Virus record (IMG/VR): IMGVR_UViG_2721755646_000010
Origin: a virus
Lineage: Duplodnaviria > Heunggongvirae > Uroviricota > Caudoviricetes
DNA length: 64,000 bases
Reading direction: 5' to 3' (one strand)
The stretch's first letter is position 1. Each line of letters begins with the position of its first letter. Made by a program: the position numbers. Shown one piece after another: positions 54,001 through 57,000 of this stretch.

Positions 54001-57000
54001 AAATCAAGCATGAACACATCCGCATGGCGATGAATGCCTGGGCGCGTCCTGATGGCGAAAAAGTTCCGGCAGCTGGAATAACCCAGGCTTATTTTGAGTT
54101 GGGTATGACGTTTCCTGAACTGTACGACGACAGCCATCCGGAAGCCCTGGCTCGCAATACCCAGAAAATTTTCCGCTGGATAGAGAAAGACACCCCTGAT
54201 GCAGTTGAAAAAATGCAGGCTCTGTTACCGGCGATCGAAAAGGCAATGCCGCCTCTGCTGGTGGCCCGTATGCGCAGTCACAGCTCTGAATATTACCGTG
54301 AGATCGTCGAACGGAGGGATCGGCTGGTGAAAGATGTGGATGATTTTGTCGCAGCGGCGATCGCCTGGGGCACCCTGACTAACAGTGGGGGTCAGCCTGG
54401 TAATGCTGTTGTCGTGCATTGACCAACAATATTCATGCCGGATTTCTTCCGGATGTTCGAGGGTAAAGTTCGGTATCAGAAGAGGTGAGTATGGCTAATG
54501 CCTGGCTCAGATTGTGGCATGACATGCCAAATGACCCCAAGTGGCGAACGATTGCCAGGGTATCAGGACAGCCAATCGCAACAGTGATGGCAGTGTATAT
54601 CCATCTTCTGGTGAGCGCGTCACGAAATGTCACGACATGTCACGGCGTGTCACTACGTGGTCACATTGATGTCACGACGGAAGATTTAGCAAGTGCGCTT
54701 GATGTGACGGAAGACGTAATTGATTCAATTTTGCATGCAATGCAGGGGCGGGTTCTGGATGGTGACCTTATTTCCGGATGGGAAAAACGTCAGGTGCTGA
54801 AAGAGGACAATGGTAACGTTTCGCAAACGGCAAAATCCCCGGCAGAGCGCAAGAGAGCGCAGCGGGAGCGGGAAAAGCTGCGGAAACATAATGCTGATTG
54901 TCACGATGAGTCACGACGTGTCACGCATCTGTCACGACAAGTCACGACAGATAAAGATACAGATAAAGATACAGATACAGAATTAAACCCCACACATAAC
55001 GCGCGCGAGAGTATTCCGACCAGTGAGTCGAATGGTGCGCCGTTGCAGACAGCCGAACCTGAATACCTGGACGGCCTGAGCGAACCGATCGGGAAATTTT
55101 CGATGACTACTGTCTGGCAGCCGTCGCCGGATTTTCGACAACGGGCAGCAGTGTGGGGTATGGCTCTGCCTGAGCCGGAATTTACACCTGCTGAGCTTGC
55201 CGCATTCCGGGATTACTGGATGGCGGAGGGGAAGGTTTTCACGCAGGTTCAGTGGGAGCAGAAATTTGCCCGCCACGTGCAGCACGTCAGGGCACAGGTA
55301 AAACCAGTCAGCAAGGGGGGAAGCCATGCAGCATCAGGTGGCACGGCATCACGGGCAGTTCAGGAAATCCGGGCTGCACGCGAACAGTGGGAACGTGACA
55401 ACGGATTTATCAGCAACGGAAACGGCCTGGAAGCTGTGGGAGCTCATGGGGGAGGTGTATTCGAACCGCTGGACTCAGAAGAACGGGGCCGCACCTTCGA
55501 AGCTCTGGATTGCCCAGATTGGTGCGATGACTGAACAGCAAATCCGTCTGGTGTGCCGTCAGTGCATGGACCGCTGCCGGGCGGGTGAAACGTGGCCCCC
55601 GGACCTGGCTGAGTTTGTTGCGCTGATTTCGGAGAGTGGGGCAAATCCATTTGGTCTTACGGTGGATGCCGTGATGGAAGAGTACCGGCGCTGGCGCAAT
55701 GAATCCTGGCGATACGACGGGAGTGATAAATACCCGTGGCCACAGCCTGTGCTGTACCACATCTGCCTCGAAATGCGTACCAGAGGGATTGAGCGCCAGA
55801 TGACGCAAGGTGAGTTAAAACGACTTGCGGAACGGCAACTGACGAAATGGGCAAAGCATGTTGGTAACGGGATGAGTGTTCCGCCAGTGCGACGACAACT
55901 GGAAGGGGCGAAACACCCGCAAGGGCCAACGCCAATTGAACGGCTGAAACAGGAATACGAACGCCGGAAGGCAGCTGGTTTTATTTGAATCTGAGAAACG
56001 ATTTTGTCGGAGGAAATATTAATGGAAACCGTATTTGACGCACTGAAAGCACTGAAAAAAGCCTCTTCACAGGTAGTGGCATCGCGCCTTGGAATCAGCC
56101 GCGAAGATGCTGTCAACGAACTGTGGAAACTGAAGCGCCGTGGTGAAGCGGATAACAAGGGGTCGATGTGGTGGCTGACTCAGACTGGTGAAAGTGAACC
56201 AGTGTCACCGGTACCGAAAGTGACAGCGCAAATGCTGACTGAGGCGATTGAACATCATGGCCCACAAACGGCGGATGAGCTGGCACTGATGTTCGGGATT
56301 ACCTCCCGCCGGGCGAATTCATCACTGGCCATGGCAATCAGCAAAGGGCGTCTGATTCGCGTGAATCAGGGCGGTAAATTTCGGTACTGCATACCGGGCG
56401 CTGATTTACCGGCAGAGCCGAAAGCCGCATCCATAACGGAAACGGATGGTAAAGCCTTTCCTCAGCCAGCAGGTGTTGCGTTACCAGTCGGGGAAGCGGA
56501 AACACAGGAAGAAATAAAAACGGAAAGTGTGGCGGTCACAGTGCAGTCACAGCCGTCGTTCACCAGAAAGCATCCGGATGGTCTGATTTTACCATCGCTG
56601 CATGTGGCTAACCGCGAGCTGCGCCGGGCAAAAGGTCAGGTTCAGAAGTGGGAGCGAGTCTGCGCCGCGCTGCGGGAGCTGAACAAGTGCCGGGATATTC
56701 TCCGGGATATTACCGCCACCAGAGAACAGCAGCGGTGAGTGGGTGGAAGACGTGGTGCCGGGCGGAAATCATGATACTCCGGCAGTGTGCGGGAACGATG
56801 AAGGTAAAAAGCGTTGGCGCACTTATCGGACGAACTGAAGCGGCAGTGAGAACGAAGGCACGGGAGCTGGGCATCAGCATGATGTTACGTGGTGATTTTC
56901 ACCCGTCGGCAAAATATTCTCAGCGTGATATTGAGCTGGCGCGGCAACTGCATCAGAGAGGCATGCAAAGAAGGGAAATTGCCAGAAAATTAGGCATGCC

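Follow-up and report, generated by a model that had tools for sequence, protein, structure and literature searches.

The window, by which we mean the whole stretch of DNA analysed (64,000 nucleotides), carries an immunity/early region, followed by a replication initiator gene with two arrays of short direct repeats and an AT-rich tract inside its coding sequence, and then by a gene for a lambda-P-like helicase loader. The features of the locus are:

53041–53679, minus strand: cI-like repressor (Pfam Peptidase_S24/HTH_3; PGAP)
53723–54013, plus strand: Cro (Pfam P22_Cro; PGAP)
53997–54422, plus strand: YdaT/cII-like gene (Pfam YdaT_toxin; phrog_163 'CII-like'; PGAP)
54491–55534, plus strand: replication initiator gene, 347 aa (ORF call and PGAP CDS agree)
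54491–54805, plus strand: N-terminal predicted winged-helix domain (N-domain), aa 1–105 (AlphaFold model)
54617–54680, plus strand: iteron cluster A, (T)GTCAC(G) in six direct copies with a period of 10–11 bp (pattern search, Tandem Repeats Finder)
54701–54710, minus strand: single inverted core copy, GTGAC (GTCAC on the minus strand) at 54704–54708, 33 bp past cluster A
54899–54946, plus strand: iteron cluster B, (T/A)GTCACG in five direct copies with a period of 10–11 bp, in the linker-coding region (pattern search, Tandem Repeats Finder)
54947–54998, plus strand: AT-rich, A-skewed tract of GATAAA/GATACA hexamers coding for DKDTDKDTDTE (Tandem Repeats Finder, composition, stability)
55097–55297, plus strand: DnaT-like ssDNA-binding domain, aa 203–269 (Pfam PF17948, E=3e-17)
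55527–55988, plus strand: lambda-P-like helicase loader gene (Pfam PF06992, E=1.3e-15; phrog_109 'P-like helicase loader'; PGAP 'replication protein P')

The start of the loader gene overlaps the stop of the initiator gene by 8 nt. As in lambda, the locus lies downstream of a cI/Cro/cII-like region and early transcription should therefore cross it; the immunity/early region (53041–54422), upstream of the initiator gene, would drive transcription through the origin proposed below.

The product of the initiator gene (WP_001262402.1) is named 'DnaT-like ssDNA-binding domain-containing protein' by PGAP, and its relatives carry the NCBI name 'phage replisome organizer'. It matches PHROG families 15931, 1408 and 3729 ('replication initiation protein') with E-values from 1e-95 to 1e-240, and shows weak matches to phrog_4880 ('replisome organizer', E=5.8e-6) and phrog_10469 ('DnaD-like helicase loader', E=6e-9). 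DnaT (aa 203–269) is the sole Pfam domain of the full-length protein, and a Pfam search with the N-domain alone returned no family and nothing relevant, even at E<=10. The initial annotation had called the gene 'O-like', a term that suits its position and likely role but not its domain content: the protein has no Phage_rep_O match in Pfam (N-domain at E<=10), and homology to lambda O was rejected on the strength of Pfam, NCBIfam and PDB sequence searches. In the AlphaFold model, a predicted winged-helix domain at the N-terminus is followed by a long basic helix (aa 117–144), a disordered linker that begins at aa 148, and a C-terminal DnaT-like domain. The N-domain is modelled with helices at residues 3–14, 16–25 and 29–45, a loop, two further helices (63–70 and 74–84) and a beta wing (85–95), with pLDDT values of 90+ except in the loop (aa 46–62). 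When this model was compared with the PDB by Foldseek, it gave weak, non-significant winged-helix matches (E about 1–6), and fold matches to RepA_N-type initiators were at chance level (E=2–6). Matches of the full-length model were mostly to the DnaT domain, which superimposes on 6aeq and 4ou6 with TM values of 0.90–0.92 (normalised to the target) at 58% identity.

The six repeats of cluster A and the five of cluster B, followed by further direct repeats, had already been described and were all recovered. In cluster A, six GTCAC cores occupy 54619–54676 on the plus strand, starting at 54619, 54629, 54639, 54649, 54660 and 54671 (spacings of 10, 10, 10, 11 and 11 bp); four read GTCACG, one GTCACT and one GTCACA. 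They sit in the stretch of the N-domain that codes for the loop (aa 46–62). Cluster B comprises five GTCACG copies (54900–54946), starting at 54900, 54910, 54920, 54931 and 54941 (spacings of 10, 10, 11 and 10 bp), and right after it Tandem Repeats Finder reports 2.9 copies of ACAGATAAAGAT at 54947–54981 (95% matches). The same program finds period-10 arrays at 54619–54664 and 54900–54948 and a period-21 array at 54899–54947. All 11 cores are on the plus strand within the ORF, and the two clusters are ~280 bp apart. Pairs of the form GTCAC-N4-7-GTCAC number 10 in the 64-kb window, where 0.41 are expected (0 of 100 shuffles reach 10), and nine of the ten fall in clusters A and B. A scan of the window for a second, distant GTCAC array analogous to oriR of phage SPP1 yielded none, just an isolated pair at 56535. 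The inverted GTGAC copy, overlooked in the first reading, is kept in most relatives with GTCAC-type repeats (gene position 192/213), and its Val codon is GTG in 15/15 sequences that have Val there. An Rfam search for structured RNA (E<=1) gave a chance lncRNA match alone, and a consensus scan for internal promoters and terminators did no better than with shuffled sequences.

The tract behind cluster B has a GC content of 0.325 and an AT skew of 0.56, and codes for disordered linker in the AlphaFold model. The least stable 40-mer across the initiator and P genes is found here (54949–54988, dG -42.3, where the region averages -55.0 with sd 4.4), and we propose the tract as a candidate DNA unwinding element. 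Its length of ~50 bp and its moderate AT content (67%) count against the origin reading. Two megablast homology blocks overlap at 54951–54982, and the tract is also the mosaic or recombination joint between an N-domain-plus-repeat module and a C-domain module. Phages Evi and Tritos have the N-half and both clusters in common with the window gene and a different C-half. YdaU of Rac-SA53 agrees with the window gene in C-half and AT tract but not in the N-domain, and lacks GTCAC repeats; the DNA of ydaU-ydaV is 88% identical to the C-half of the window gene from 54951 onwards, AT-rich linker included. The unrelated N-domain of YdaU goes together with TGTTCAAACA/TGTTTGAACA inverted repeats, unlike the GTCAC arrays of the window. 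The repeat-bearing N-half and the C-half behave as modules that can be exchanged separately.

The window protein belongs to a proteobacterial 'WLRLWHDMPNDPKWRT' replisome-organizer N-domain family (PHROG 1408/3729/15931), with an N-domain of ~105 aa and no Pfam entry, for which 975 protein matches and 1494 representatives of 50%-identity clusters (E<=1e-3) were obtained. Of 5426 complete E. coli genomes, 2128 carry the module, at a maximum of 5 copies each (three in O157:H7 strain TR01), and a protein search of INPHARED returned just 25 phage records with the N-domain, no model phage among them. In the relatives, the initiator is followed by genes for lambda P, DnaC/IstB-like proteins, or Toprim plus DnaB helicase.

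Paired repeat arrays are a family trait. For the survey of motif pairing, 112 unique relatives were used, of which the 105 with a 5-mer in three or more copies in zone A were informative. In all but one of these (104/105), zone B also has three or more copies of that 5-mer, and the sequence between the zones has 0–2 (0 in 95/105); controls with motifs of other classes gave mostly 0–1 copies. Four motif classes were seen among the relatives, GTCAC, GTAAC, CGAACGC and GTAACGC. Copy number ranges from 3 to 6 in cluster A, with 4 and 6 the commonest values and an unchanged position in the gene, and likewise from 3 to 6 in cluster B; (GAYAMR)n comes after cluster B throughout the family. The window gene follows this rule, with one array in the N-domain loop, one in the linker, 6+5 GTCAC copies, and then (GAYAMR)n. 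Two clusters are the norm in this family, and the view that two clusters in one gene are unusual is therefore valid only in comparison with lambda. Seven of the 112 relatives have no clear cluster A, and two clusters may therefore not be strictly required.

The clade of the N-domain matches the motif class in 108/112 relatives, although simple linkage would give part of this agreement. The N-domains of an Erwinia member with GTCAC (L094) and of Pantoea/Enterobacter members with GTAAC (L108/L109) are 77% identical and the copies are at matching positions; in both clusters the Val codon has switched between GTC and GTA, in every copy in L109 and in part of the copies in L108. A comparison of N-domains across motif classes singled out no specificity-determining residues, the recognition-helix region (helix 63–84 plus wing) being too similar between classes and the GTAAC members too few. 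This similarity and the weak structural matches of the N-domain model count against the origin reading.

Codon usage was analysed over 19 species of gamma- and beta-proteobacteria, across which synonymous sites outside the repeats are near saturation. The normalised entropy of codons drops from 0.85 elsewhere to 0.21 in the columns that encode the repeats (Mann-Whitney p=7e-8). Codons of cluster A are invariant (GTC ACG in 18/18, GGT CAC in 18/18), as are those of cluster B (TCA 19/19, GTC 19/19, CAC 17/17); conserved Leu and Arg residues take 5–6 codons, while GTC, ACG, CAC and TCA in the repeats never vary. This pattern indicates that the repeats are under selection at the DNA level.

We consider it probable that these elements form a two-part replication origin of an E. 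coli O157:H7 prophage, located inside the initiator gene, made up of two iteron arrays and the AT tract, and bound by the gene's own N-domain. The iteron-plus-AT-rich origin layout suggested in the initial annotation receives strong comparative backing from the frozen repeat codons, the motif pairing, the least stable DNA and the loader context: the gene occupies the slot of an initiator, with a lambda-P-like loader after it in the window and DnaC-like loaders or a primase-helicase after it in relatives. We envisage that N-domains would bind the direct GTCAC(G) repeats which, being about one helical turn apart, would therefore place all sites on one face of the DNA. Protein arrays would assemble on the 6 direct sites of cluster A and its inverted one, and on the 5 sites of cluster B, and would probably join in one wrapped or looped complex. 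Strain within the complex would then, with the help of early transcription running rightward out of the immunity region, melt the AT tract right after cluster B, and the DnaT-like C-domain and the neighbouring lambda-P-like protein would bring in the host DnaB helicase. N-domain binding, cooperation of the arrays, melting of the AT tract and this recruitment route are all steps that we infer.

Of the other explanations, the one we take most seriously, although we think it unlikely, is that cluster B and the AT tract alone constitute the origin, cluster A and the inverted copy being a control element for the same protein (an autoregulatory roadblock within the gene, or a titration or handcuffing site that keeps initiation in check). 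It would account for the AT tract adjoining cluster B and not cluster A, and for relatives L105, L112, L117 and L116, in which B-like copies are kept with no clear cluster A. The start of cluster B also varies (gene nt 478 in L100, 451 in L106, ~388 elsewhere), and the variable distance between the clusters therefore counts against strict helical phasing between the arrays. However, synonymous sites are conserved as strongly in cluster A as in cluster B, a cluster A with matching motif is present in 104 of the 112 unique relatives, and no sequence feature tells 'control' from 'firing' for cluster A.

It is less probable still, indeed improbable, that the repeats serve another factor or process, such as a regulator of early-operon transcription, partition (as a centromere), packaging or recombination, with the origin elsewhere. 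In its favour, plasmid parC-type centromeres also consist of short direct repeats with a 10–11 bp period in two clusters. Against it, the repeats travel with the N-domain while repressor type, cII type, loader type and C-domain vary by host; there are no partition genes beside the locus (19-kb annotated stretch), the GTCAC arrays adjoin the least stable DNA of the gene pair, and the 64-kb window contains no further periodic GTCAC array. Finally, the repeats could have no function as DNA and reflect only a peptide that is repeated, or slippage where the loop and linker tolerate it. Both clusters do code for poorly ordered parts of the AlphaFold model (loop 46–62; the end of helix 117–144 plus the start of the linker), and repeat copy number differs between close relatives, but we regard this explanation as barely tenable. 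The core offsets modulo 3 are 2,0,1,2,1,0 in cluster A and 1,2,0,2,0 in cluster B, giving the peptides VT, CH or SR; the cores are thus read in each of the three frames, which, with the frozen synonymous sites, rules out a peptide repeat. The synonymous positions of the cores are invariant across species that are otherwise near saturation, and the motif changes in both clusters together. Protein identities of 55–73% and near-saturated third positions make recent horizontal transfer of identical DNA an unlikely source of this invariance.

The two-part origin that we favour has partial counterparts in known systems. The iterons of the lambda origin form a single cluster of four, each ~19 bp long and with internal dyad symmetry. 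As in lambda, the candidate is contained in the initiator gene, where the part for a DNA-binding N-domain meets that for a C-domain that recruits the loader; an AT-rich tract comes after the direct repeats, at the inter-domain linker, and a gene of the lambda-P family of loaders (PF06992) is found right downstream. Unlike in lambda, the repeat units are 10–11 bp with a core of 5–7 bp, present in 6+5 copies in two clusters, one of them within the region coding for the DNA-binding domain, and the C-domain is DnaT-like. In phage SPP1, oriL is contained in gene 38, which encodes the replisome organizer G38P, so that initiator-bound boxes and an AT-rich unwinding element are located in the initiator's own gene (PMC5737612). 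The repeats and AT tract of the window are likewise embedded in the initiator gene, where binding is predicted. The second binding region of SPP1, oriR, lies at a distance (PMC3485210), whereas the second array of the window is in the same gene, ~230 bp upstream. The window family also differs from SPP1 in that it occurs in Proteobacteria and its loader is P-like, not G39P-like. On homology of the N-domain to G38P-type/Phage_rep_org_N the searches give a mixed picture: no Pfam match at E<=10, yet the weak matches to phrog_4880 and phrog_10469 and the 'phage replisome organizer' name of the relatives.

The ssDNA-binding domain (PF17948) is common to the window protein and DnaT of E. coli/Salmonella (Foldseek TM 0.9, 58% identity). 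The window protein scores 94.5 bits against the DnaT equivalog NF002770 (NCBIfam), with a cut-off of 201, and aligns over aa 196–271 only, and the structural match is likewise confined to the ssDNA-binding domain; it is therefore not a DnaT orthologue. A plasmid iteron Rep protein (RepA/Pi/RepE type) was likewise rejected, there being no sequence match to PDB profiles and the repeats being 10–11 bp vs the 17–22 bp of such iterons. Replication of satellite phage P4 needs two separate short-repeat clusters (ori and crr), both bound by the alpha protein; these are kilobases apart and the P4 initiator is a primase-helicase. The likeness of ori/crr to the window is an analogy only, as the P4 initiator is unrelated to the window protein.

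That iterons and an AT-rich tract may be situated within an initiator gene is a textbook principle. A literature search on the origin and its initiator family, including O157, lambdoid and Stx-phage replication regions, found neither a description of it nor experimental studies of the family. Far more tentatively than for the origin as such, we suggest as a possibility that the locus represents an undescribed origin architecture, in which the codons for the loop of the DNA-binding domain, and a second time those for the linker, contain iterons in each of the three frames, and the protein on both arrays would wrap the ~280 bp that code for its own winged helix, so opening the AT tract. Specificity might then shift by concerted single-base switches in every copy (GTCAC to GTAAC, often protein-silent), which would make new incompatibility or immunity groups among the up to five co-resident prophages with the module in E. 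coli O157-type genomes and allow an induced prophage to fire its neighbours' origins or prevent it from doing so.

The N-domain family spans ~1500 50%-identity clusters across Proteobacteria, yet has no Pfam family. If the locus is an origin, it would be a clean natural example of a cis element overprinted on a coding sequence in three frames, and the family would offer ready-made orthogonal initiator-iteron pairs (GTCAC, GTAAC, CGAACGC). It would also provide a cis site and a specificity code with which to predict cross-activation or initiator competition among co-resident EHEC prophages after induction, and so would bear on the amplification of prophages and toxin genes and on the 'defective prophage pool'.

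The initial annotation placed two GTCACG iteron clusters and adjoining AT-rich repeats inside an O-like gene of prophage 2, and on re-reading of the sequence this layout was recovered exactly as stated. Copies are spaced 10–11 bp apart, all on the plus strand, and Tandem Repeats Finder reports period-10 arrays at both clusters, with an additional period-21 array at cluster B. Shuffling predicts 0.41 matches to GTCAC-N4-7-GTCAC in the window; 10 are present, nine of them within clusters A and B.

Features of the initiator region of prophage 2, and the initiator-loader pair of prophage 1 (window coordinates)
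54491-55534: initiator ORF, 347 aa, holding both clusters, the inverted copy and the AT tract
54619, 54629, 54639, 54649, 54660, 54671 (starts), plus strand: GTCAC cores of cluster A
54704: lone inverted core GTGAC, after cluster A
54900, 54910, 54920, 54931, 54941 (starts), plus strand: GTCACG copies of cluster B
54947-54981: ACAGATAAAGAT x2.9 (Tandem Repeats Finder)
55527-55988: downstream loader gene of the lambda P family, overlapping the initiator stop codon by 8 nt
7559-9125: prophage 1 pair, O-like gene 7559-8674 and P-like gene 8667-9125

Minus-strand GTCACG copies also occur at 29086, 29168, 29330 and 29492 (window 29086-29497); their gaps of 82, 162 and 162 bp suggest a longer tandem or dispersed repeat with no relation to the origin.

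The label “O-like” is apt for the position of the gene but not for its protein, in which the DnaT ssDNA-binding domain (aa 203-269) is the sole Pfam match. On the 5' side lie genes for a cI-like repressor (minus strand) and Cro, together with a YdaT/cII-like gene. For the N-terminal 164 aa there was no Pfam family at E<=10 and no match among PDB sequences, and the score for DnaT equivalence (NCBIfam) was far under the cut-off. PHROGs assigns the protein to families annotated as ‘replication initiation protein’ and ties it weakly to ‘replisome organizer’, while NCBI names its relatives ‘phage replisome organizer’. In an AlphaFold model built from 62 homologues, aa 1-105 form a predicted helical N-domain resembling a winged helix, whose loop (aa 46-62) is modelled with lower confidence. 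A long basic helix (aa 117-144) comes next, then a linker predicted to be disordered (aa 148-193) and finally a confidently modelled C-domain that superposes on the DnaT structures 6aeq and 4ou6 (TM about 0.9, 58% identity). The N-domain loop is encoded by cluster A; cluster B codes for the last part of the long helix and the first part of the linker, whose DKDTDKDTDTE stretch is specified by the AT-rich hexamers. The product of the repressor ORF (53041-53679), 212 aa long, has an HTH and an S24 peptidase domain; in strain TR01 (NZ_CP033605.1), PGAP gives just a 113-aa ‘LexA family protein’ corresponding to its C-terminal part, which may reflect a strain difference in repressor start or integrity, or mis-annotation.

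The 40-mer at 54949-54988 has the lowest stability within the initiator and P genes and ranks second least stable across 52-58 kb (dG -42.3 vs a mean of -55.0, sd 4.4), the remaining low-stability sites of that region lying at or near gene boundaries. The AT tract has a GC content of 0.325 and is strongly A-skewed. Directly 3' of it, a GC-rich hairpin (CCCCACACATAACGCGCGCGAGA region, 54988-55010, minus strand), terminator-like on that strand in a scan, encodes ELNPTHNAR and is common to Rac-SA53 and prophage 1; it may form part of the right boundary of the origin.

To judge from codon usage, selection acts on the repeats at the DNA level. Homologous loci were gathered from 38 species genomes and IMG/VR, and codons were compared across 19 species, including Escherichia, Serratia, Rahnella, Pseudomonas, Bordetella, Chromobacterium, Acidovorax and Gilvimarinus. 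Outside the repeats, conserved residues take nearly all synonymous codons (5-6 for Leu and Arg), whereas repeat codons are frozen (GTC ACG in 18/18, GGT CAC in 18/18, TCA in 19/19), and where the inverted copy encodes Val, the codon is GTG in 15/15 sequences. Normalised codon entropy was 0.21 in repeat-coding columns vs 0.85 for conserved residues elsewhere (Mann-Whitney p=7e-8). That the repeats arose purely at the peptide level or by slippage is contradicted, the cores occupying all three reading frames and encoding VT, CH or SR.

The two clusters also change together. Among 112 unique N-regions, 105 were informative, having some 5-mer at least 3 times in the cluster-A zone; seven had no clear motif there. 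In 104 of the 105, the same 5-mer also occurs at least 3 times in the cluster-B zone, with 0-2 copies between the zones (none in 95 of the 105), while A-motif counts in the B-zones of other classes were mostly 0-1. The motif classes are GTCAC (75), CGAACGC (22), GTAACGC (5) and GTAAC (3). Within one clade, an Erwinia locus (L094) carries GTCAC where an Enterobacter locus (L109) has GTAAC, position for position across both clusters, while a Pantoea locus (L108) intersperses some GTCAC/GTGAC copies among its GTAAC copies; many of these changes are silent, a Val codon passing from GTC to GTA. With repeat-coded residues taken out beforehand, the nearest neighbour by N-domain has the same motif class in 108/112 cases vs 54.5 with shuffled labels, an agreement partly expected from linkage alone. 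Copy number varies by 21-bp steps (two units, or seven codons), and the AT hexamers number 3 to 5 units. Two initiators are without either cluster (L118, Serratia MAG, 3001-4191; L120, Pantoea sp., 3001-4305); in these, a segment (…YVYYVATTDGDVVRVGISRNPWARCKDLK…) inserted 3' of the N-domain-coding part looks, by eye, like a GIY-YIG-type nuclease motif.

On sequence comparison, the initiator gene is evidently a mosaic with its joint at the AT-rich tract. Phages Evi and Tritos, which have both clusters and a different C-half, match window 54402-54982 at 83-84% identity, and ydaU-ydaV of Rac-SA53 matches 54951-55597 at 88%. The YdaU gene shares the AT tract and the DnaT-like C-half, but differs in its N-domain and has inverted TGTTCAAACA repeats instead of GTCAC arrays. 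These perfect 10-nt inverted repeats (TGTTCAAACA / TGTTTGAACA; L002 2440-2500), just 5' of the shared tract, could be initiator sites in a Rac-type origin. The two megablast blocks overlap exactly on the hexamer tract (54951-54982), which may serve as a short homology for swapping initiator modules. The prophage 1 gene has a third kind of N-domain (HTH), unrelated to that of prophage 2, while its C-half is 63% identical over aa 98-347 and its P-like gene 90% identical; about six (A/G)ACCCAAA repeats in its linker-coding region (7925-8116) look like its own iterons. The repeats thus track the N-domain, and the C-half tracks the loader. The gene 3' of the initiator in other species encodes lambda P, a DnaC/IstB-like ATPase or a Toprim-DnaB helicase.

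We consider a two-part, iteron-type origin within the initiator gene the best explanation. The initiator's own N-domain would bind both arrays, which would cooperate. Melting would take place in the AT tract 3' of cluster B, and DnaB would be brought in for helicase loading by the DnaT-like C-domain and the P-like protein. The same logic applies in lambda, with ori inside O, and in SPP1, with oriL inside gene 38 (PMC5737612). The chief rival reading gives cluster A a control function outside the firing complex; a non-replicative role of the repeats is unlikely.

An element of this kind is textbook. In the available literature we found no description of the conserved architecture of this initiator family; its short 10-11-bp units, the two same-motif arrays, one within the region coding for the predicted DNA-binding domain, and the concerted switching of motif appear to be undescribed. 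The N-domain family comprises about 1500 clusters (50% identity), and only 25 deposited phage genomes carry the domain, none of them a model phage. Seven of 3059 module matches in complete E. coli genomes lie on plasmids rather than chromosomes, and could be phage-plasmids using the proposed origin. The N-domain-plus-iteron module is very common in E. coli: 39% of complete genomes have it, a single genome holding as many as five copies and O157:H7 TR01 three.
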